From: a virus
Taxonomy: Duplodnaviria > Heunggongvirae > Uroviricota > Caudoviricetes
Strand: one strand, 5' to 3'
DNA: 40,622 bases
Virus record (IMG/VR): IMGVR_UViG_2534682002_000024
A program made the translations under genes and the position numbers. Of this stretch, positions 1,351 to 40,622 are shown piece by piece; the stretch's first letter is position 1; each line of letters opens with the position of its first letter. The notes under the pieces are model-generated. The model ran no database searches. It was not told the origin of the DNA and saw only the letters and a list, made by a program, of their open reading frames with translations.

Positions 1351-1565
1351 TTAATGGGTTTTGATGTAGCCGCGCACGCACTCTTCGACTAAGCCCCAGA
1401 ACCAGTCGCTATCAATAGTGATGCCGACTTTGGTATTAGCGGGCTTGCCAAGAACGCCCAGCTCGTCGCAGACGGTACGCCCATAACAAGGGCCACTGTT
1501 GACGTCCACTTCGACGTACATCTCCTGGGTTTTAATGCCATCAGGGTATAGCGCGGCGATTTTTT
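1351..1565 (-). pseudogene. 3' remnant of a host gene truncated by the prophage; C-terminal pattern resembles nucleoside hydrolase family
   Basis: Track ORF 1351..1581 starts with an ATG that falls inside the putative phage end repeats. The tail (PDG...YVEVDV...GRTVCD...[12 protein letters not shown]) resembles IU-nucleoside hydrolase C-termini and sits beside a nucleoside transporter. Family assignment is from memory only. Confidence 0.4.
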
Positions 1566-1640
1566 TGATACCGATTTGCATTTCATTTGATACTGCTGAA
1601 AAACGCCGATACGCAACTTATTTGATACTAAATCGGCGCT
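1564..1640 (+). repeat. Prophage right-end region with three direct TTTGATAC repeats (candidate MuA-type transposase binding sites)
   Basis: TTTGATAC occurs at 1564, 1586 and 1621. The first two are 22 bp apart, matching the periodicity of Mu end-binding sites, and a TG dinucleotide lies at 1566-1567. This is about 100 bp beyond the mom-like stop, as in Mu. Confidence 0.5.
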
Positions 1641-1674
1641 TTTCTTTTGAGTTTTAGAATGAGTTTTTAAGCGC

Positions 1675-2412
1675 TCATTCACTCTCTTTCAAACCAGTTT
1701 TAACTGTTTGTGGTTTTGGGTAAGGCTGGACTTTGAATAGCTTTGTGTTGAGGCGTTTTTTGGCCCTCTTGTTCAGAAACCGGATGTAACGAAACTGTCG
1801 GAACTTATGAACATTGGCTCTGTCAATATTAGCCCTCAGATGTTCACCTCGTTGTCCGCCTCGTTTAATGGCATTCCTGCAAATCTCGTGATACCACTCG
1901 CCATCAAGTTCATAGAATATTGATTCATGGCTGCCTACATAATCAAAATTGCTTGCCTGATACACGACACCAAGACAGCCACAACGCTCATCTGCAAACG
2001 ACTGAACCCACTGTACCTGCGGATAAAGCTGCCTGATTAGCTTGAGCGCGTAACTGATTGCCCTTGATTCGGAGTTTCTCGGCATACAGTCATGCAGCCA
2101 TAGCCGGTTAAGCTCCATATATTCTCGGTTCTGCGTACCCGTTACGACGCGTGCACCACTGTTTGGGTTAAGGGCGTAACCCCATTGCATTACGCCAACA
2201 AGTTCCCGTTCTGAAAATATGCCCAGATGAAGGTAGGAGTTATTTACGAAACGGTGGCTGTAATGTTTATTGACGATGACCAGTCTGGCCAGCCAGCAAC
2301 TTATTGTCTCAACCCGCAACTCACGGGAGCCATAACCAACGATATTGTCGTTATAGCGAATAAGTTCAGGCGTGCTGATGATTCGGGATGTGACTTGCTT
2401 TCTGTTCCCCAC
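1675..2412 (-). CDS. mom: Mom-like DNA modification protein (acyltransferase-like)
   Basis: 245-aa ORF that is the last gene before the prophage end and overlaps the 3' end of a Com-like zinc-finger gene, which is the com-mom arrangement of Mu. Size is near Mu Mom (about 231 aa). Identity rests on context, not sequence recall. Confidence 0.6.
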
Positions 2413-2979: not shown

Positions 2980-3147
2980 ATGAAAGAGCCTGTTTGCCCT
3001 GCCTGTAAGACTCCCTTACAGCTCATCTATCGCCGTTCTCGATCTCAAAATGGCAAGACATACAAACCAAAAAATGCTTCCTGTTTCAGGATGCTGATAT
3101 GTCCTGCCTGTTCTCCCCGGAGGGAAAATACACAAAACGTGCATTAA
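2980..3147 (+). CDS. Unlisted 55-aa double-CPAC zinc-ribbon ORF (MKEPVCPACKTPLQLIYRRSRSQNGKTYKPKNASCFRMLICPACSPRRENTQNVH)
   Basis: Found by manual translation; below the ORF track size cutoff. AGGAG at 2962-2966 precedes it. Two CPAC motifs plus a third Cys suggest a zinc ribbon. It is divergent from com-mom in an otherwise non-coding gap of about 570 bp. Confidence 0.3.
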   Translation: MKEPVCPACKTPLQLIYRRSRSQNGKTYKPKNASCFRMLICPACSPRRENTQNVH

Positions 3148-3185
3148 CAAATTCACCCGGCAGGGAAACCTGCCGGTCGGTATTG

Positions 3186-3431
3186 TTACATCATAGTACC
3201 GTCAGTTCCGGGCTGAACCGGCTCTGGTTGCTCTACGGGTTGAGGCTCATTTTCCGTGCTGTTTTCAGCCGGAGAACGGCCAACCATTCGGGCCAGCACT
3301 TCATCAACATATGCGTCGATTTGTGCCTCAAAATCCTTGCGAACCTGCGCCTTCAGCACGCGGTTCACTTCTTCAGAATAAAGTGCCTGTTTGACAAGCT
3401 CTTCAGTAACCGTGCCTTTAATCTCTGGCAT
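3186..3431 (-). CDS. Hypothetical 81-aa protein with helical N-terminus and acidic proline-rich tail
   Basis: ORF with AAGGAG-like RBS upstream (caaaaggagaatattc-ATG). No recognisable family. Confidence 0.5.
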   Translation of the reverse strand: MPEIKGTVTEELVKQALYSEEVNRVLKAQVRKDFEAQIDAYVDEVLARMVGRSPAENSTENEPQPVEQPEPVQPGTDGTMM

Positions 3432-3466
3432 GAATATTCTCCTTTTGCAGGTATATTGCCCCGTTA

Positions 3467-3649
3467 TCAGAGCGGGGTCGGGTCGTTTGGGGATGACGGT
3501 GCCTGTGCTGTTTTACTGAGTTTTTCAGCTGCCGCATCATCAATTTTACGGCGAATATAATTTCTGATGACCTTATAACCGCCGCTCACCAGATATAACG
3601 CACTGACCACTGCGCAGAAATAAAGCAGCATTGTATGAACGAATGTCAT
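3467..3649 (-). CDS. Hypothetical 60-aa small membrane protein (one N-terminal TM helix, basic C-terminus)
   Basis: Hydrophobic stretch MLLYFCAVVSALYLVSGGY followed by a charged tail. A GC hairpin (CCCCGttatcagaGCGGGG, about 3453-3470) separates it from the next gene. Confidence 0.45.
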   Translation of the reverse strand: MTFVHTMLLYFCAVVSALYLVSGGYKVIRNYIRRKIDDAAAEKLSKTAQAPSSPNDPTPL

Positions 3650-3795
3650 ATAACCTTACCTTTGATATTGACTACATAATTCGTTATCGGGTAAAAACAT
3701 CGAAGCGACTGATAACTACTCCTTCGGTAGTATTTTTATTTTCCTTTATGGGTTAGGTAGCTCCCGCCAGCCGTATCATGACCGGCGGGATTTTT

Positions 3796-5835
3796 TTATT
3801 CTGTTACCGCTTTTTTCACTTCCACCACAATGCTGTCAATCAGCACCGGGTAAGTTGCATTTTTGGTGATATCCGTTACGCGGAGTTTGTCCACCGGGAA
3901 AGTTCCTACTGGTGACTGCGTCAGGGTAAACGCGGCACCATCCTGACCATCAATAACCGGAATAACCTGAAGGCTGTTATTTCCTGCAAAACGGAAGGCC
4001 AGCGTATGCCATTCATTATCAAATGCACCAAAGGTTCCCAGTTTCTGGTTATTTGTTGCCACTTTTGCATTGTGGTACATCACATTCAGGTCTTTTGCGT
4101 CTGTCTGGATGTAGAACGATGCCAGCAGATTATTCCCTGCATCCCCTGTCAGGGTGACACCCTGCGGCAGAGAGGAAACCGGCCAGTAAAGCGCCATGAC
4201 ATACTGGTTTGCCACCAGGTCGCCAGGTACTTTAAAACGACAACTGATTAAACCACCATTTTTCAGCAGTTCAGCACCAGTACCGGCATCATGATCCAGA
4301 TACCAGGATGATTTACCTGTTTCCTTGGTCAGTTTCATTGCCTTACCACCTGTGCCTCCTGCATCACTGATAATTTCAGCTTTACCGCCAGCCGGCTCCC
4401 AGCCCTGGGCTTTCAGATTTCCTTCTGACTCACTGACACGGTAAGACAGCAGTGTTGTGGTTACTGCTTCAGTTTCTGAAGGTGACGGCACTGGTGCTTC
4501 AGTTTCAGAAGATGGAACATCGGCTTTTACTGTGGTTCGCCCTGCATGAGTCAGAACAGCCGTGGCCAGACGGTCAGAAATAATACCCCGGCGCGCCCAG
4601 GCACTGAAATGGCTGGCCCGGTCCGCAGATGTCCAGGTAGCGGCACTGTTACGCCACGTTGAGCCGTAATAACCAATGGATTCAATATCCGGGTCTTCTG
4701 CCGGATTGTTGGTGGGTACATTCACGCCATTTTCATCTGTCATTAATGGAACGAAATGAATGTTTTTATCTGTTTTGTTTTTGTAGCCGCCATAGATTGC
4801 CTGGTATGCTGGTTCATTTTTCTGTTTCCAGAAATACGTGGTATCGCCACAAATCCACGGAACGCCAGCAGCACTGCCACCGGTACACTGTTCCGCCTGT
4901 TCAGCCAGGTCTGCGCGGAATTTTTCCACCATCGCCAGAAACAGCGCAGAATGCTCCGTCGGCTTCGCATCAATATCAAACTCGCCCTGCATCCACACCA
5001 CAGCAAGCAGGCGGTTTTTCGGGTTCTTCGCCAGTGCCGCTTTTGTCCGGCTGATTAAGTCCTTATACAGCGGCTTATCCACACCCCAGCGGGCTGAGTC
5101 CTCTGAAGCACCCGTGCTGTCACTGTACGTGCCGTCAGCACCCGCCGTGAATGCAGAACCACCACGGCAGCAGGGAACCAGCAGAATCCCCGCATCTGCC
5201 GGAATAAACGGCAGCAGTTTTTTGGCAATGTGAAGCCCCTGACCCACGGTGCCATATTGCCCTTTAGCCACATCCGCTTTCGGGTGATTTTTTCCACTCA
5301 TATCCTGCACATCATGCAGACAGTGGTCGGCCAGAATGATGTCGTTATACTGACAGGCTTTACCTCCCGGCGTGACTGTACTGCGACGGGCTAACTGCAT
5401 AATACGCGGTTCGGGGCGGTCATATGTCTCCGGCAGTGGCAGACCTTCACCGTAAGCCATACCGTTTGACTGACCAGCAAGAACCACCACGTAATACCAG
5501 GAAGGGGAGCTGGAAGCAGTTTCATTTCCTGACGGACGGGTATGTGTTTCAGCATTATCCCAGTCTGACGGTTCAGCAGTACCGGCAACATCAGCACTTA
5601 ACGGAATGACCGCACCAATACCCGCTCCGGTAATTTCCACACTCGGATCACCGGATACTGGCCTTACCCACAGGCAATCCCGTGTATTAAAACTGATGAG
5701 ACAGTCAGCAAATGTCATTCCTCCTTTTGTTTCGGCCGGAGGAAAGGGAGCCTCAAGAAATGCCGCTGTACCACCGGAAACTTTAACAGTAAAGTTTCCG
5801 GGCATTGATGATAGTTGAACCCATTTGGACGTCAT
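3796..5835 (-). CDS. 679-aa SGNH/SASA-type carbohydrate esterase with lectin-like beta-sandwich C-terminal domain (cargo gene)
   Basis: VVVLAGQSNGMAYGEG carries the GQSN motif typical of sialate O-acetylesterase-like (SASA/DUF303) SGNH hydrolases. No N-terminal signal peptide. An S/T/P-rich linker precedes a C-terminal region that looks like a concanavalin/laminin-G type domain. It occupies the gin to com-mom interval. Confidence 0.6.
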   Translation of the reverse strand: MTSKWVQLSSMPGNFTVKVSGGTAAFLEAPFPPAETKGGMTFADCLISFNTRDCLWVRPVSGDPSVEITGAGIGAVIPLSADVAGTAEPSDWDNAETHTRPSGNETASSSPSWYYVVVLAGQSNGMAYGEGLPLPETYDRPEPRIMQLARRSTVTPGGKACQYNDIILADHCLHDVQDMSGKNHPKADVAKGQYGTVGQGLHIAKKLLPFIPADAGILLVPCCRGGSAFTAGADGTYSDSTGASEDSARWGVDKPLYKDLISRTKAALAKNPKNRLLAVVWMQGEFDIDAKPTEHSALFLAMVEKFRADLAEQAEQCTGGSAAGVPWICGDTTYFWKQKNEPAYQAIYGGYKNKTDKNIHFVPLMTDENGVNVPTNNPAEDPDIESIGYYGSTWRNSAATWTSADRASHFSAWARRGIISDRLATAVLTHAGRTTVKADVPSSETEAPVPSPSETEAVTTTLLSYRVSESEGNLKAQGWEPAGGKAEIISDAGGTGGKAMKLTKETGKSSWYLDHDAGTGAELLKNGGLISCRFKVPGDLVANQYVMALYWPVSSLPQGVTLTGDAGNNLLASFYIQTDAKDLNVMYHNAKVATNNQKLGTFGAFDNEWHTLAFRFAGNNSLQVIPVIDGQDGAAFTLTQSPVGTFPVDKLRVTDITKNATYPVLIDSIVVEVKKAVTE

Positions 5836-5934: not shown

Positions 5935-6495
5935 TTATTTTTCCGAAACGCTCGCAGGATAATAACGATAAAGGGTTGAAAGACCGATATCAAAAATAAG
6001 TGCCACCTGTCTTCGACTGACACCCCCGGCCAGTAAACGCCCGACCTGCTCGTATTGTTCCTGCGTGAGACGGCGGGGTCTGCCGCCGGTTCGTCCCCTT
6101 TCACGGGCAGCTGCAAGACCAGCCCGTGTCCGTTCGACAATTAATTCACGCTCCATTTCTGCCAGCGCACCCATTATGTGAAAAAAGAAGCGCCCCATGG
6201 GGGTTGACGTATCAATGTTGTCAGTAAGACTACGAAAATTTATCCCCTGTTGCTGTAATTCATCTGTCAGCGCAACAAGGTGGCGCATACTGCGCCCCAG
6301 CCTGTCCAGTTTCCAGACCATCAGCGTGTCACCGGGTTTTAGTTTCTTCAGTGCCCGCTTCAGTCCCGGCCGCTGTGTCGTTTTACCACTCATTTTGTCT
6401 TCAAAAATCTGCTCACATCCTGCACATTCCAGCGCATTTCTTTGTAAACCGGTGTTCTGGTCATTTGTTGATACGCGTATATAGCCAATCAGCAT
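5935..6495 (-). CDS. gin: Gin/Pin/Hin-family serine DNA invertase
   Basis: MLIGYIRVSTNDQNTGLQRNALECAGCEQIFEDK...WKLDRLGRSMRHL is nearly identical in pattern to Gin/Pin. 186 aa. Transcribed away from the adjacent invertible segment. Confidence 0.9.
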   Translation of the reverse strand: MLIGYIRVSTNDQNTGLQRNALECAGCEQIFEDKMSGKTTQRPGLKRALKKLKPGDTLMVWKLDRLGRSMRHLVALTDELQQQGINFRSLTDNIDTSTPMGRFFFHIMGALAEMERELIVERTRAGLAAARERGRTGGRPRRLTQEQYEQVGRLLAGGVSRRQVALIFDIGLSTLYRYYPASVSEK

Positions 6496-6552: not shown

Positions 6553-6578
6553 CCTGAAACCTCGGTTTACGGGATACG
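6553..6578. repeat. gix-like crossover site (gin-proximal)
   Basis: GAAACCTCGGTTTACGGGA resembles the Mu gix core (AAACCGAGGTTT) and is an inverted copy of the site at 7976-8001; 16 nt are identical. Confidence 0.7.
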
Positions 6579-6929
6579 GTAAACAGGGCCGCGAATGCCC
6601 TGCCATCAAACGGTACGGCTGTTGCAGCAAGCAGGCTGGCAAATGCCCGCAGAATCAATGGTGTCGCCTTTGACGGCACGCAGGATATAAACATTACGTC
6701 AGGAATGCCGGAATCAACGGCCAATCAGCGTTATGTTACAGGGGTAAGACTGGGAGCGCAGGCATTAAGCGGCGGACTGGAATATAATTACTCCCTGTCA
6801 TCAGGAAATGTGATTACCGGTTTTAAGACTGACGGAGACTGGGAAATGCGTGGTGGTGATGACCGTGTTTATTACAGACAGATACAATATTGTATTAATG
6901 GGCATTGGGTATCCGCTGCAAGTATTTAA
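6558..6929 (+). CDS. Silent alternative tail-fiber C-terminal cassette (S'v-like), no start codon of its own
   Basis: The frame opens directly at the gix site and reads NLGLRDTVNRAANALP...INITSGMPESTANQRY..., closely parallel to S residues NLGLRETVNKAADALP...INITSGMTQSTADGRY..., then diverges at the tip. The track lists only the ATG-started 3' part (6705..6929). Confidence 0.7.
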   Translation, partial: NLGLRDTVNRAANALPSNGTAVAASRLANARRINGVAFDGTQDINITSGMPESTANQRYVTGVRLGAQALSGGLEYNYSLSSGNVITGFKTDGDWEMRGGDDRVYYRQIQYCINGHWVSAASI

Positions 6930-7050: not shown

Positions 7051-7572
7051 ATGCAACTGATTAATGTCAAACGATATTACCCGAAAGACAAACCCTATGG
7101 TGAGGATGTTCAGTATTTCCAGAGTGAGGACGGAAGGGATTTTTATGAATCTATCCCGCTTTTTACAAAGAAATACAAACTCTGTATTTCGCCTGTAACG
7201 GGTATTATCTGCTCTGTTGCTGAAGATGTCTCTGCTTTATATCCGGCAGGTTTTACTGTTGTTGAAGTGGACGAACTGCCGGAAGGTGTGAATATTGACG
7301 GTAACTGGCAGTTTTCTGATGGCCTGATATCAAAGGTGCCGGTAAACTGGAAGACGGTTGCTGAAAAGCGTCGCTCATCGCTGCTCCAGGAAGCCAACGA
7401 AACCGTGGATGACTGGAAAACAGAATTAAAACTGGACATGATTAGCGATGAAAATAAATTACAGCTGACGCGCTGGATGGCGTATATCCGACAGCTTAAA
7501 GAAATGCACTTTAATGATATTGCCAGTGAGGGGCATTACCAGGCGATTCCCTGGCCGGAAAAACCGGAATAA
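7051..7572 (+). CDS. Tail fiber assembly protein (Tfa/U-type chaperone)
   Basis: C-terminus ...TRWMAYIRQLKEMHFNDIASEGHYQAIPWPEKPE matches the conserved Tfa C-terminal pattern. Start placed at ATG 7051 (MQLINVKRYY) rather than the track start at 7000. Confidence 0.75.
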   Translation: MQLINVKRYYPKDKPYGEDVQYFQSEDGRDFYESIPLFTKKYKLCISPVTGIICSVAEDVSALYPAGFTVVEVDELPEGVNIDGNWQFSDGLISKVPVNWKTVAEKRRSSLLQEANETVDDWKTELKLDMISDENKLQLTRWMAYIRQLKEMHFNDIASEGHYQAIPWPEKPE

Positions 7573-7606: not shown

Positions 7607-8518
7607 TTACACTGAACTTACCGTTCTCCAGGTATTATTAATATAAATCTGAACCGGGCGATAATAGACCCCACCGATATTGTCCGCAGACCGGGAGCCG
7701 GTTTCCTGCACGTTAATACCGGAAAGCATACAACCGGAAGGTGCGCTGTAATTCCATGACATTTCATTGCCTCCGGGTGAATGATAGCTCTGTGCTCCAA
7801 GCTGAACATTCTGTACATACCGGCCATCTGCGGTTGACTGCGTCATTCCTGACGTGATGTTGATATCCAGCGTTCCGTCAAAAGGAACACCATTAATATT
7901 TCTTGGGGTGGCGAGTCTGTTTGCTGCCACGGCGGTTCCAGCCGATGGCAGGGCATCAGCAGCCTTATTTACCGTTTCCCGTAAACCGAGGTTATCGATA
8001 AAGGTTCCTTTGTCCTGGATATCCGCGCCATTCTGGTCCCTGCGCAGGTAACGGTTATCACCTTCGCTCCTGCTGTAAACATCCAGATTATTACGGGCGG
8101 TTTCCGCATTCTCCAGGTCGGCAAGGTTCTGATCCTTCGCCAGGGCATTAACGTCAGCGGGACCAAGACTGTTTTTTGTGGCAAGCGTCCCCAGACCAAG
8201 ATAACCACGGGCCAGACGCTGGGCTTCCGCACCGGCATCAGCAATTTCTTTCAGGTTGTTTTTCCGGGAAAAGGCATTCGCAGCGATAATGGCTTTAATG
8301 GACAGCGTAAGCTGGTTTAACTGCGCCTTATCCGGCTGAATACTGGCTTCAGCCAGAATATTCAGCAGTTCGGCCTGGAGAATATTCAGCCAGTCCTGAC
8401 CAATCCAGCTGATACCTTTTTGTCCGTCACCTTCGGTAAACCAGGTGGTGGTATTACTCTGCGCCGGAGCCAGTTCAGGCATATTCGCCACGCCGGAATT
8501 ATTATCAACATGGAACAT
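7607..8518 (-). CDS. Tail fiber protein S (constant N-terminal part plus currently expressed variable C-terminus)
   Basis: Follows baseplate genes and contains the gix site at about residue 175. Start placed at ATG 8518, which overlaps the upstream stop as TAATG. Confidence 0.75.
   Translation of the reverse strand: MFHVDNNSGVANMPELAPAQSNTTTWFTEGDGQKGISWIGQDWLNILQAELLNILAEASIQPDKAQLNQLTLSIKAIIAANAFSRKNNLKEIADAGAEAQRLARGYLGLGTLATKNSLGPADVNALAKDQNLADLENAETARNNLDVYSRSEGDNRYLRRDQNGADIQDKGTFIDNLGLRETVNKAADALPSAGTAVAANRLATPRNINGVPFDGTLDINITSGMTQSTADGRYVQNVQLGAQSYHSPGGNEMSWNYSAPSGCMLSGINVQETGSRSADNIGGVYYRPVQIYINNTWRTVSSV
7976..8001. repeat. gix-like crossover site inside S
   Basis: CCCGTAAACCGAGGTTATCGATAA closely resembles Mu gix (TTCCTGTAAACCGAGGTTTTGGATAA, from memory) and is inverted relative to the site at 6553-6578. 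Confidence 0.7.
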
Positions 8519-36301: not shown

Positions 36302-36529
36302 TTAGCTGACTTGTTTCGCACCAACAGAACGGCATATTCCGCTGTAAACTTCTGTCGCACCTTCGCGATCAAGTCCGGCAGATATCACCATTCGTGTGCG
36401 GTCATTAAATTCAAAAAGTAAATCGCCACATTCTTTATTTTCGGCCAGTGAAATCACCTTCACGTTATCGAAATTAACCAGGTAAAAGCGTCCGTAAATA
36501 TCAGGAATATAAAATACCGCCATAATCAC
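36302..36529 (-). CDS. Small protein at the Mu kil position
   Basis: 75 aa, immediately downstream of B; Mu Kil is about 74 aa. Assignment is positional only. Confidence 0.4.
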   Translation of the reverse strand: MIMAVFYIPDIYGRFYLVNFDNVKVISLAENKECGDLLFEFNDRTRMVISAGLDREGATEVYSGICRSVGAKQVS

Positions 36530-37458
36530 ACCTGTGAGAGTAATTCAGGGTTGGTATAAACCTCTTTAAAGGCCGCATTAATATGTTTTTCTGTCAGCGC
36601 CGCACCTTCACCGCTGGCGGTGAGCCACGCCTGGTTAAGCGTATGTGTCAGAACGCGTAACGCTCCCGGCTTTTCAGCGATAGCCTGCATGACGGCCAGC
36701 TCGGCCTCACCACTGATACCCCATGCCCTGGCAATGGCCAGCACATCCGCCTTTTTGGCCTTGCGAAGTTGTTTTGTACGGGCAAGACGGCTGAACAGGC
36801 GCGATAAATCATCAAAGGCGCGGCGTCCACCTTTAAACAATCCGCGCGGGTTACCAATAAGCACCATCCCGATCCCCGTGGCGTCCTGAATTGCCCGGAG
36901 TTGCTCCAGACCGTCAATACCAAGATGATCCGCCTCATCCACAATCACCAGTCCACGCGTTCCCATCAGGCGACGGCGGATGGCGCGGGATAATGCCCCT
37001 TTGTTCGCGCGGGTGTAATCAATCCCCAGCGCATCGGCCAGCTCCAGCAGACACTCCGTGACGCTGGAGTGCGCGGGTGACAGGGTGATCATCCAGGTGT
37101 TTGGTTGCTCCTGGCAGTAATTACGGGCAGTGGCCGTTTTACCCACACCCGGTACGCCCACAATAACGTTAATACAGCCCATCAGACGAACCGCCTGAAA
37201 CAGTGCGCGCAGCTCCTGGACTGTCTGCGTTTCCACAAACTGCGGCGGTTCCGGCAGTGCGCTTTGTTTATTCCAGTTCTCATACCAGGAACGCAGGGAA
37301 GCAGCCACAGCAGCGTTATCGCCTTTATATTTTCCCTTACGGAAAGCCGATAATGTGCCGTCGGAAATTCCCGCCTCTCTGGCGATGGCATACTGCGTCA
37401 GTACGCCGCCATCAATAAGTTCATCAATGGTCTTGATTACATCGTTAATATCAGTCAT
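36526..37458 (-). CDS. B: DNA transposition protein B (AAA+ ATPase)
   Basis: 310 aa with Walker A GVPGVGKT; N-terminal HTH-like region; directly downstream of the transposase. Mu B is 312 aa. Confidence 0.85.
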   Translation of the reverse strand: MTDINDVIKTIDELIDGGVLTQYAIAREAGISDGTLSAFRKGKYKGDNAAVAASLRSWYENWNKQSALPEPPQFVETQTVQELRALFQAVRLMGCINVIVGVPGVGKTATARNYCQEQPNTWMITLSPAHSSVTECLLELADALGIDYTRANKGALSRAIRRRLMGTRGLVIVDEADHLGIDGLEQLRAIQDATGIGMVLIGNPRGLFKGGRRAFDDLSRLFSRLARTKQLRKAKKADVLAIARAWGISGEAELAVMQAIAEKPGALRVLTHTLNQAWLTASGEGAALTEKHINAAFKEVYTNPELLSQV

Positions 37459-37529
37459 ATTATTAACCTCTCATTTGATACCTTGTTTAATCAAATAACC
37501 TGAGTCGCCGCTCGGGTTATTTTTTTATT

Positions 37530-39620
37530 TCAGGCCAGCGGGTCATTTTCTTTTAATTTCGCTTCCAGCAACTGCAATCCCCGCTGGAAATTACGCTCGT
37601 ATTCTTCATCAGGTTCATCGTCAGCGACCGGTTGCTGAACGATCACCGCATTACCCACAGGGCGATAGATGTTTTCCAGCCATGGCTCCTGCTGCTTGTG
37701 CTCCAGCACGTTGACCACCTCATCCTCGGCATCACGGATTTTTTCCTCTGCGCGTTTACGCATGCCTTTAAGGCGTTGCTGCTGTTTGTAGTATTCCGCG
37801 CTGACCGGGAAGGCTTCGCGTTTATTGCCGCCCCATACCGCCTCGCAAATCACGCTGCCATCCAGGCGACGTACGGTAATTCGTTCGGCATCATGAATGT
37901 CATAGCTGATAAGCACCTTGCGGCCATGCTCATCACGCAGCTCGGGAGCGTAGTAAATATTATTCAGCCAGCGTATTTCACAGCGTCTTACAGGGCGTTC
38001 CACCATCGGCCGGAACATATCCCGCAGCTCAACATCGGACAGCCATTCAATTTCCGTGTCCTCTTCCGCCAGGCGTTTTTTTCTGAACTCCGCCGGGCTG
38101 TAATGCTTGCCGTTCGGTTTTATGGGTAATTCATCGTGCGGCCGGTTGTTGTACCACTCAACACCATCACGAATGGCATCAATCAGTTCAGCCCAGGACG
38201 GTAAATCACGCATCGCTGACTGCTGCCGGGCGTTCAGCCGTTTGCCCTGTTGCAGGGCACTGAATGCCGAGCGTAAATCGCGGTTGGTTTTACGTAACGT
38301 CTCGCGATCTGCACCTTTCCCGAAATAGGTGCGGTATTTACGGGCTATGCGCATCGGTAATGTGCGGTTAAGCCGTTCGATAATGCCCCGTCCCTGCGGG
38401 TTACCGGCAATCCCTGTCGGGTGATTAATCCCCAGTCGCGGCAGAATCCCCACAACTTCCTTATCCAGGATGTCGGCGGTTTCCCCGGAACCGTTATCCG
38501 AGTAATACAGAAACGGTTTGCCGTGATTACGAATACCGTGCTGTATGGCACCGGCTACGGCGAAAACATTTTCAGCCAGGTCAAGGCTCCAGCCCACCAC
38601 AAAGCGCGTGCCACCGTCGATAACAAAGGTCACTTCCGGTGCAAATGGCCGCCCGTGAACCGGGTGCCTGCATTTCAGCTTCATGCCGTGACCGTCACCA
38701 ATCCAGACATAATTCACCGGCATTTTTGACCAGTCGCGGCGCGTGAATCCCTCAAGCTGGCGATATTCACTGCCGGTCACCCGGCCTTTTTGTTTCACCA
38801 CTTCCGGCAGTTTCTTCATTGCGCGGCGAATGGTGTCATAAGACGGCATGATATCGAGCATATAAGGCTCATCAGCGTGCCGGTGCTGCCATTCAGCGAC
38901 AAAATCCTCGTAGGCCTCGGTCATTGGTCGGCCGTTTGACTGGCGATACTGCGCCAGAAATTCGGGCAGCCAGTTAATATCTTCGGCTTTTATTTCCTGG
39001 CGCTTACCCGGTGCCAGCAAAAGCAGGCGTTCGGCGGCGTTCTGCGCCTTGTTAAAGGCTGCAATCCAGCGTTTCAGCGTGATTTCACTCAACGCACGGC
39101 TGTTTCCCTTTTTGGCGTTCGCCGTCTCAACCATTGCCACAATGCGCTCGTCCAGCTGCGAACGTGCCAGGTTGTCAACGATAAACCGGATAGCTTTCGC
39201 ACAGCTGAAACCGGGTTGTTGCGCGACTTTCATCACTTCGCTGACGATCGCGATTCGTGCATCAGCCACCTGGCGCTGGTTTTCAGTCAGGGCATTAAGG
39301 CGTTCAACCATCAGTTGTGGTGATCCGCGATATGCCTCCACCGCATCAACCACGGCAGGCGAGCGTCTGGCCTTTGTCACCACCGGAGCCGGTGATTCAT
39401 CGGCTTTTTGCGTCATCAGTTGCAGGGCGTAGCGTTCACGTAATGCCTGCTGCGTCACTTCAGGTAAACAGTCGATACTGTATTCAGTTGCTTTAGAGCC
39501 TGAGCGACGACGGGAACAACAGCTTTTCCCTTGTACGTAACGTTGTAATGCCTGGCGAATACCTTTTGTTGTAGCAGGCATTCCGGGCGCGCCAATCAGT
39601 TCTTTTGCAATGACATACAT
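37530..39620 (-). CDS. A: Mu-type DDE transposase A
   Basis: 696 aa following ner; N-terminal DNA-binding region, central RNase H-like region, C-terminal charged domain. Size matches MuA (663 aa). Confidence 0.85.
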   Translation of the reverse strand: MYVIAKELIGAPGMPATTKGIRQALQRYVQGKSCCSRRRSGSKATEYSIDCLPEVTQQALRERYALQLMTQKADESPAPVVTKARRSPAVVDAVEAYRGSPQLMVERLNALTENQRQVADARIAIVSEVMKVAQQPGFSCAKAIRFIVDNLARSQLDERIVAMVETANAKKGNSRALSEITLKRWIAAFNKAQNAAERLLLLAPGKRQEIKAEDINWLPEFLAQYRQSNGRPMTEAYEDFVAEWQHRHADEPYMLDIMPSYDTIRRAMKKLPEVVKQKGRVTGSEYRQLEGFTRRDWSKMPVNYVWIGDGHGMKLKCRHPVHGRPFAPEVTFVIDGGTRFVVGWSLDLAENVFAVAGAIQHGIRNHGKPFLYYSDNGSGETADILDKEVVGILPRLGINHPTGIAGNPQGRGIIERLNRTLPMRIARKYRTYFGKGADRETLRKTNRDLRSAFSALQQGKRLNARQQSAMRDLPSWAELIDAIRDGVEWYNNRPHDELPIKPNGKHYSPAEFRKKRLAEEDTEIEWLSDVELRDMFRPMVERPVRRCEIRWLNNIYYAPELRDEHGRKVLISYDIHDAERITVRRLDGSVICEAVWGGNKREAFPVSAEYYKQQQRLKGMRKRAEEKIRDAEDEVVNVLEHKQQEPWLENIYRPVGNAVIVQQPVADDEPDEEYERNFQRGLQLLEAKLKENDPLA

Positions 39621-39621
39621 A

Positions 39622-39870
39622 TCATGACGCCTTTCTCATATAGCTCTTAACCTGGTATCGACTGGGCCAGATTTCTTCAGGCGATACCCCAAGAGCATCA
39701 GCAATTATTTGCTGATACGGTCGGCAAGGAGTACGTAATACGCTTTTCAGCGAATCCCTGCTGTAACCAGCCTTTAAAGATAAAGAGCGCAGTGATAAGC
39801 CAGCCATGTGTAAGCGCGCCTTGATGATTTCAGGCGGCCAATCGTGATCTGAAACTTCTCTTCTACTCAT
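39622..39870 (-). CDS. ner: Ner-like DNA-binding regulator
   Basis: 82 aa; ...QQIIADALGVSPEEIWPSRY matches the Ner/Nlp signature (EQIIANALETKPEVIWPSRY in Mu, from memory). GAGGAAG RBS upstream. Confidence 0.8.
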   Translation of the reverse strand: MSRREVSDHDWPPEIIKARLHMAGLSLRSLSLKAGYSRDSLKSVLRTPCRPYQQIIADALGVSPEEIWPSRYQVKSYMRKAS

Positions 39871-40037: not shown

Positions 40038-40622
40038 ATGAACATGAAAAACAGTTCTTTTCTCGACGAAGGAAAAGAACCAGTGATCGAACGGATTTTT
40101 CGTCTTGCAGAGCGTTACAAATCGAGAAGTGAGGCGGCTAGAGCATGGGGAATAAACGTTCAGACATTGCAGAACTACTACAAAAGGAGAAACAATCAGC
40201 CGCCACCACAACCAAGAAAGCACCATCTCCAGAACATTGCAGAAAGAGAACATGTATCTATGGAGTGGCTAGTCCATGGTTATGGTGATGAGCCAAGCAT
40301 GAAAAAAGAACCAATTGAACAAGCAAAAAGAACAAAAAAACAAAGAATTGATGATAGTGATTCCATCATCATGAGGGCGTGGGACTCGCTAACTTCATCT
40401 GAACAAGAGATTTTGTCCAACTTATTGATCAGAAAAGGGGCCGAACTACTAACCGTTTTGCTTGATACAGATATTCAAAAACTGCACTCATTGAGCGGAG
40501 TCAAAAGAGCACTAGCATTGAGTCTACAAGAGTTACCCGATGATACTGTAAGAGAGATTTATGAAGAATGTGAAGCTAAGGTTAATCATTTAAATGTAAC
40601 CCAGAAAAAGGCTAGTGCGTAA
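40038..40622 (+). CDS. Putative c-type repressor (divergent from ner)
   Basis: Start placed at ATG 40038 (AGGAA RBS upstream), giving 194 aa, near Mu repressor size (196 aa). N-terminal HTH-like segment RSEAARAWGINVQTLQNYYKR. Divergent orientation to ner. Confidence 0.55.
   Translation: MNMKNSSFLDEGKEPVIERIFRLAERYKSRSEAARAWGINVQTLQNYYKRRNNQPPPQPRKHHLQNIAEREHVSMEWLVHGYGDEPSMKKEPIEQAKRTKKQRIDDSDSIIMRAWDSLTSSEQEILSNLLIRKGAELLTVLLDTDIQKLHSLSGVKRALALSLQELPDDTVREIYEECEAKVNHLNVTQKKASA

Follow-up and report, generated by a model that had tools for sequence, protein, structure and literature searches.

Genes and features at the locus

The stretch of DNA analysed here (hereafter the window; 40,622 nt) begins with an intact gene for a nucleoside transporter, to which we apply the name nupX used for it in the annotation of intact genomes, and continues through a fragment of rihB into the end of a phage and on into phage genes (Table 1). 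In addition to the genes tabulated, these include a Gin-like invertase (a resolvase by Pfam) and Mu-type morphogenesis genes. From this gene content, which extends from Mom and Com to the transposase and the ner-like regulator, we read the window as a Mu-like prophage in reversed orientation, with its right end at the host junction and its left end beyond the last base of the window. By Pfam, a DDE transposase, A, and an adjacent MuB-type AAA+ ATPase, B, lie near the left end, and com and mom are the last genes before the right terminus, both as in Mu-like phages. Relatives of the prophage annotate com as a 201-nt gene of the Com family. Across the whole window ARAGORN detected no tRNA and an Rfam scan no RNA family, and thus no RNA gene or tRNA att site appears to be involved.

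Table 1. Coordinates of the features described in the text, with amino acid identity to the corresponding proteins of phage Mu
Feature	Position	Strand	Description	Identity to Mu protein
nupX (yeiJ)	1–1251	−	Intact, 416 aa; NupC-family nucleoside transporter; Pfam Nucleos_tra2_N, Gate, Nucleos_tra2_C	
rihB 3' fragment	1351–1546	−	CDS nt 747–942, i.e. codons 250–313 and stop	
Chimeric 76-aa ORF	1351–1581	−	Residues 1–11 from phage end, codon 12 spans junction, residues 13–76 are RihB 250–313	
Target-site duplication AGGG, right-hand copy	1543–1546		From junction and intact-site sequences	
Prophage right end (attR)	1547–1628	+	Terminal T at 1547, 5'-TATAGCGCGG; transferred strand ...CGCTATA-3'; contains R1–R3	
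Hairpin and U-run (GAAAAGCGCCGAU...AUCGGCGUUUUUC)	1598–1644	− (mom-sense)	13-bp stem, R3 in loop	
mom (DNA modification)	1675–2412	−	Last phage gene towards host junction; Pfam Mom, E 2.6e-77	79%
com	2366–2566	−	Zinc-ribbon translational activator of mom; Pfam Zn_ribbon_Com; 66-aa form as in relatives	47%
MuB-like AAA+ transposition ATPase (B)	36526–37458	−	Pfam Phage-MuB_C, E 2.5e-25; AAA_22	48%
Transposase A	37530–39620	−	696 aa; putative binder of TTTGATAC; Pfam Mu-transpos_C, E 1.5e-17; weak HTH_Tnp_Mu_1	Local matches only, 21–32%, E about 1e-7
ner-like early regulator	39622–39870	−	Pfam HTH_35	43% (Ner)
Repressor-position gene	40038–40622	+	194 aa; no Pfam family; ends at last base of window	None

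Position of the prophage–host junction

When positions 1–1700 were compared by megablast with 5,426 complete E. coli genomes, nearly all of the genomes matched. The matches in O157 genomes, at 100% identity, ended at base 1547, with the remainder covered by none of the 5,426 genomes in these alignments, and the sequence from 1548 onwards was found, at a wide range of loci, in ~210 complete E. coli genomes. An earlier note, made on the DNA letters without database searches, had proposed that a prophage–host junction lies here and that it disrupts a nucleoside-hydrolase-like gene beside the nucleoside transporter gene, and had advised that the flank be aligned with an uninterrupted locus. Both proposals were borne out by this alignment: host identity stops at 1547, the phage side recurs at many other loci, and in a prophage-free genome the order is nupX–rihB–yeiL, with a 313-aa rihB that is whole at this locus in thousands of E. 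coli genomes. rihB lies upstream of nupX on the same strand, with a gap of 99 bp between the two.

In order to place the junction to the base, ten complete insertions of the prophage family were compared, namely six that were fetched, Sp18 of E. coli O157:H7 strain Sakai, two pairs of right and left junctions, and the rihB insertion itself. All ten are bounded, in the orientation of the window, by 5'-TATAGCGCGGCG...CACCTGGTTACA-3' (in short, TATAGCG...GGTTACA), with flanks that change directly outside, and each of 20 distinct left junctions consists of GGTTACA followed by unrelated sequence. As the flanks change right outside these invariant termini, 1546 is the last base of host DNA and the phage begins with a T, at 1547. 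The right junction thus reads catcaggg/TATAGCG (host in lower case, the slash marking the junction; in longer form, ...catcaggg/TATAGCGCGG).

The other end of the prophage lies outside the window, 272 bp past position 40622. To locate it, we derived the chimeric RihB protein that an insertion with a 4-bp duplication should have created on the left, and looked up this exact sequence. The predicted chimera of 275 aa (RihB 1–250 and 25 residues specified by the phage end) is identical to protein EKK46247.1 of E. coli 8.0586, and look-ups of chimeras predicted for three neighbouring registers found no such proteins on record. The left-junction DNA and the 76-aa ORF of the right junction are present on one contig, JH970058.1 (246,585 bp) of assembly GCA_000305375.2. 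The left junction reads GGTTACA/agggttaatc (in longer form, ...CACCTGGTTACA/agggttaatcag), and the uninterrupted target site is catcagggttaatc, given also as ...catcagggttaatcag. With 1547–40622 of the window and the 272 bp beyond, the prophage measures 39,348 bp.

Target-site duplication and termini

A 5-bp target duplication had been anticipated at the other prophage end. A duplication was indeed found there, but it is one of 4 bp (AGGG), as in all ten insertions (AGGG, CGAT, CGGA, CTTT, AGCA, GGTG, CGAA, TTTA, GACA and GGAA). A length of 5 bp was rejected, as in nine of these the bases directly outside the 4-bp repeats are not the same on both sides; the rihB insertion mimics a 5-bp duplication (AGGGT) because the host base that follows AGGG is a T, as is the terminal base of the phage. 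For two insertions, composites of 300 nt made from 150 nt of flank per side aligned as 296 nt in uninterrupted genomes, which sets the duplication at exactly 4 bp; with the rihB insertion, three duplications were verified against intact sites in total. Hence the element combines invariant termini with a target duplication of fixed length, in the manner of Mu-like phages. The termini themselves are asymmetric: the left end is ...GGTTACA-3', with a terminal CA, and the transferred strand of the right end is ...CGCTATA-3', with a terminal TA that is invariant in the ten insertions, such that the TG...CA pattern of Mu is not present at both ends.

Repeats at the prophage ends

Three copies of TTTGATAC had been listed, at 1564, 1586 and 1621, with the first two 22 bp apart, and had been suggested to mark the right end of the phage. 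All three are present as described, on the + strand, and with the ends defined this suggestion holds as well: the cores, which face inward, start at nt 18, 40 and 75 from the right terminus (R1, 1564–1571; R2, 1586–1593; R3, 1621–1628), and the left end mirrors them with three TTTGATAC cores at nt 18, 113 and 165 from its own terminus. All six sites face inward and share an extended consensus of roughly A-TTTGATAC-(C/T). Within the 40.6-kb window there are five copies of TTTGATAC, compared with 0.94 expected from shuffled sequences, none of which reached five.

With its three repeats at either end, a 22-bp spacing between R1 and R2, and an L1 that stands away from L2 and L3, the layout is shared with phage Mu, the attR and attL of which likewise hold three sites each. 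In the site plan of MuA, R1 and R2 are contiguous, being spaced by 22 bp and abutting the terminus, and L1 is separated from L2 and L3, by ~90 bp. We found an ACGAAAA-like core in the Mu ends at nt 12 and 34 from the right (22 nt apart) and at nt 21 and 166 from the left; this CGAAA-type core is unrelated to the TTTGATAC of the present prophage, and R3, which is inverted in Mu, is direct here. A second comparison is provided by the FluMu/SuMu-like Pasteurellaceae phage vB_MhM_3927AP2 of Mannheimia, which has the closest transposase of any named phage (44.6% identity over 84%). In this phage the motif is TTTTGCATAG, found at nt 18 and 165 from the left terminus and in two right-end copies 22 bp apart, which lie at nt 18 and 40 from TGTAAGCGG if the outer 48 nt are packaged host DNA. 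Its right terminus, TGTAAGCGGTCGATTT, is similar to TATAGCGCGGCGATTT; unlike the present prophage, however, it has a canonical TG/CA right terminus and some of its motif copies are inverted. Geometry that is kept while the motif changes along with the transposase is what would be expected of transposase-binding sites, and the TTTGATAC repeats are as such most likely the sites R1, R2 and R3 of attR.

Alternatively, the repeats might belong to the 3' region of mom, as regulatory or structural elements (parts of a terminator or a site for a host factor), or might form an inward promoter. R3 does fall in the loop of the strong hairpin downstream of mom, and a weak sigma-70-like match (TTGATA-18-GATACT) is formed by, or overlaps, R1 and R2. 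Promoter-like matches, however, are no more numerous here than in shuffled sequence, the left end has no mom and yet carries TTTGATAC three times, again at 18 nt from the terminus and with the orientation mirrored, and the Mannheimia relative, with its diverged transposase, has another motif at the same positions. We consider it improbable, on these grounds, that the repeats serve mom rather than the transposase. The hairpin itself is a likely terminator of mom: when folded as RNA, the 141 nt from 1560 to 1700 have a minimum free energy of −39.2 kcal/mol, with a z-score of −5.6 relative to shuffles.

Two further repeated elements were observed. A perfect 12-nt copy of the extended end site, TCATTTGATACC, identical to L1, is located at 37471–37482 (+), in the 71-bp gap between the stop of A (37530) and the start of B (37458), just upstream of the ribosome-binding region of B; it is identical in seven related prophages. 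This copy may allow the transposase to bind internally and so regulate B, or may have some other role. Additionally, a 13-nt sequence, TTTAAGCGCTCAT, occurs at 1666–1678 and at nt 95–107 of the left end; with respect to the termini, the two copies point in opposite directions. The right-end copy contributes to a hairpin that overlaps the mom stop codon, and the sequence could be a host-factor site.

Disruption of rihB and the 76-aa ORF

The 313 codons of rihB are severed after nt 750 of the coding sequence (codon 250), with the insertion at codon 249/250. The two halves now lie 39 kb apart, each in frame with a few codons of the phage end, the 5' part in the 275-aa chimera and the 3' part in the chimera of 76 aa. 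In the latter, the initial 11 codons and two bases of codon 12 are non-host, whilst residues 13–76 are identical to residues 250–313 of the 313-aa RihB of a prophage-free genome. The ORF is thus the truncated C-terminus of a host protein joined to phage-end sequence, which is what the earlier note had supposed. The note had further placed the start of the ORF inside the repeats; the ATG (1579–1581) does lie between repeats one and two, but the junction, at 1546/1547, is 17 nt outside the first of them.

Gene callers annotate this ORF, and it has a weak match to Pfam IU_nuc_hydro that covers profile positions 243–296 of 297 and, at 33 bits, stays below the gathering cut-off of 34.2. It might on this basis be taken for a real small gene encoding a conserved, stand-alone C-terminal nucleoside-hydrolase domain, an explanation to which we assign a very low probability. 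The exact 76-aa protein is recorded in just two contigs, both of one assembly, and the proteins that cluster with it are truncated fragments of RihB. A conserved 76-aa gene was looked for in prophage-free genomes and, instead, thousands of genomes hold the intact rihB at this locus. Moreover, the 12 starting codons of the ORF lie in or across the phage terminus, and on direct reading no Shine–Dalgarno-like sequence precedes its ATG.

Functional IU-nucleoside hydrolases possess the full-length fold with an N-terminal DxDxxxDD motif. Compared with RihB (YeiK), the pyrimidine ribonucleoside hydrolase of E. coli, the 76-aa ORF lacks residues 1–249 and hence this motif; it is therefore a gene fragment rather than, functionally, a member of the family, and it is very unlikely to specify an active enzyme. 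The DxDxxxDD motif (residues 9–16) and His239/Asp240, the role of which in the YeiK structure is catalytic, are located on the other fragment, the 5' piece, from which the last 63 residues of RihB are missing. Judging from these sequences, activity of either piece is unlikely.

With regard to the neighbouring transporter gene, no promoter-like match was detected on the nupX strand in the interval between the junction and nupX, and our search of the literature for a rihB–nupX operon or transcription unit found nothing usable. If nupX relies on the promoter of rihB, one might speculate that it is now cut off by the prophage and by the hairpin that follows mom. The exact insertion is recorded solely in E. 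coli strain 8.0586, and is an ordinary strain-specific event involving a known prophage family; the lack of an intact rihB in this strain accordingly represents routine strain-specific gene disruption. The proteins of 76 and 275 aa annotated as 'nucleoside hydrolase' are artefacts of the insertion, and should be labelled as the halves of a pseudogene.

Choice of insertion sites

Sp18-type prophages have been reported to occupy positions that vary from one O157 strain to another and are packaged, and Sp18 DNA, like that of Mu, does not circularize (PMC7430833, PMC2669165). In agreement with Mu-like behaviour, the ~210 genomes and 20 distinct left flanks described above represent many unrelated insertion sites. 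In strain 61_150228 (NZ_AP026099.1) the rihB paralogue rihA has received a prophage of this family, at the 4-bp target CTTT, most likely by coincidence in view of the more than 20 other, unrelated sites. A site-specific mode of integration, with a favoured att site in rih genes, for which this one relative might be cited, was rejected on the variety of insertion sites and has a negligible probability, as more than 20 further insertions are in unrelated genes (including flgG, sorM, lsrC, icmH and a CRISPR-cas flank), the rihA and rihB targets are unlike (CTTT versus AGGG), the sole site-specific recombinase found is the Gin-like invertase, and the prophage encodes a DDE transposase and MuB.

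Relationship to Sp18 and to phage Mu

The closest of the named elements is the Mu-like prophage Sp18 of strain Sakai, with which the prophage is near-identical genome-wide (97.4% DNA identity over 37,683 of 39,076 window bases, or 96%). The two share termini, TTTGATAC sites and a 4-bp duplication (TTTA in Sp18), as well as the gene order from c, ner, A and B to gin, the accessory block, com and mom. They differ in that Sp18 is inserted in sorM and the present prophage in rihB, and that Sp18, at 38,755 bp against 39,348 bp here, has another repressor allele and some differences in the early region, the first ~420–630 nt being unaligned. It is in the immunity region that the two diverge most. 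In the Sakai record Sp18 is annotated at 5040971–5079729, whereas by its junctions it extends from 5040970 to 5079724, with offsets of 1 and 5 bp. Among E. coli relatives more generally we observed two sets of transposase and repressor alleles, with A proteins of 696 and 680 aa. The right end, compared by megablast with a phage collection, matched no isolated phage, only two records of Stx phages into which a Mu-like element had been inserted.

We thus regard the sequence from 1547 onwards, with a high degree of confidence, as attR of a 39,348-bp Mu-like prophage of the Sp18 type that transposed into rihB of strain 8.0586, with the repeats as its likely transposase sites. An Sp18-type element would have entered rihB in this strain by DDE transposition. 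In this process the A transposase would bind R1–R3 and the three matching left sites, leading to a transpososome that would cut at the invariant termini and join them to the target with a 4-bp stagger, and the AGGG duplication would result.

The resemblance to Mu is uneven. Features in common are random insertion with a short duplication of fixed length, the position of com–mom as last genes about 115–130 bp from the right terminus (128 bp from the mom stop codon in the present prophage), and a left terminus that begins TGTA. At the DNA level about 28% of the prophage aligns with the Mu genome, at ~69% identity. Whilst a relationship to Mu is clear for Mom, B and the morphogenesis genes (Table 1), blastp of transposase A against MuA gave nothing beyond the local matches tabulated, and a phmmer search of A against the PDB did not return any MuA structure, the best hits being retroviral integrase cores. 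Transposase A is much nearer to its counterparts in the Mannheimia phage (44.6%) and in Pseudomonas D3112-like phages (about 30%) than to MuA. With A closer to Pasteurellaceae and D3112-like phages and Mom, B and the morphogenesis genes closer to Mu, the transposition module is a mosaic.

Target duplications of 5 bp for Mu and 6 bp for B3 have been documented (PMC8705779). The 4 bp found in all ten insertions, Sakai Sp18 included, together with the TA of the right terminus where Mu has TG/CA ends, set the present element apart from Mu in the strict sense, as does a transposase that is not orthologous to MuA. The element is, therefore, Mu-like in the broad class, and lacks three features specific to Mu, namely the 5-bp duplication, the CA right end and the MuA orthologue. 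As the duplication is 4 bp rather than 5 bp, the Mu mechanism is not transferable unchanged. We are slightly inclined to view Sp18-type phages as a distinct branch of Mu-like transposition, characterized by a 4-bp stagger, a TA-3' right end where CA-3' is near-universal, and a transposase nearer to Pasteurellaceae and D3112-like phages. In the searchable literature we found no statement of a 4-bp duplication, or of the distinctness of such a branch, for Sp18-type phages, and the papers on SfMu and on Pseudomonas saltoviruses do not discuss duplication length. A modest gain of the comparison are the base-exact ends of the Sp18-type prophages that are widespread in EHEC, with their 4-bp scar and TA right terminus. 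These are of importance where software sets the limits of transposable prophages by searching for TG/CA ends and duplications of 5 or 6 bp, and also provide a natural variant for the study of target stagger in DDE transposases and of their tolerance of ends other than CA.

Accessory block and further observations

In Mu, gin is directly followed by com and mom, whereas in the present prophage an accessory block at 3186–5835 (−) intervenes between the Gin-like invertase and com. It encodes a 679-aa protein with a SASA sialate-O-acetylesterase domain and DUF6645, followed by small DUF1378 and DUF826 proteins. The block resembles the nanS-p/DUF1378/DUF826 cassettes of lambdoid EHEC prophages, a likeness that would suggest exchange between prophage types. 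Between the DUF826 gene and com, ORFs at 2980–3560 (+) correspond to what is probably an accessory gene in decay, which is annotated as frameshifted in most relatives and has its full 465 nt in strain E2855, where it is intact.

In four relatives, RefSeq annotates an 80-nt 'tRNA-OTHER' (at ~21.5–22.2 kb) between virion and head morphogenesis genes, which corresponds to the region of the window around 22–23 kb. Finally, the tail-fibre and tail fibre assembly genes beside the invertase are surrounded by inverted repeats, with one pair of 179 nt (6558–6736 and 7815–7993; 75% complementarity) and a second pair of 19 nt (6425–6443 and 7498–7516) in the tail-fibre region. The tail fibre assembly gene is found on opposite strands in two related prophages, which is consistent with an active switch resembling the G segment.
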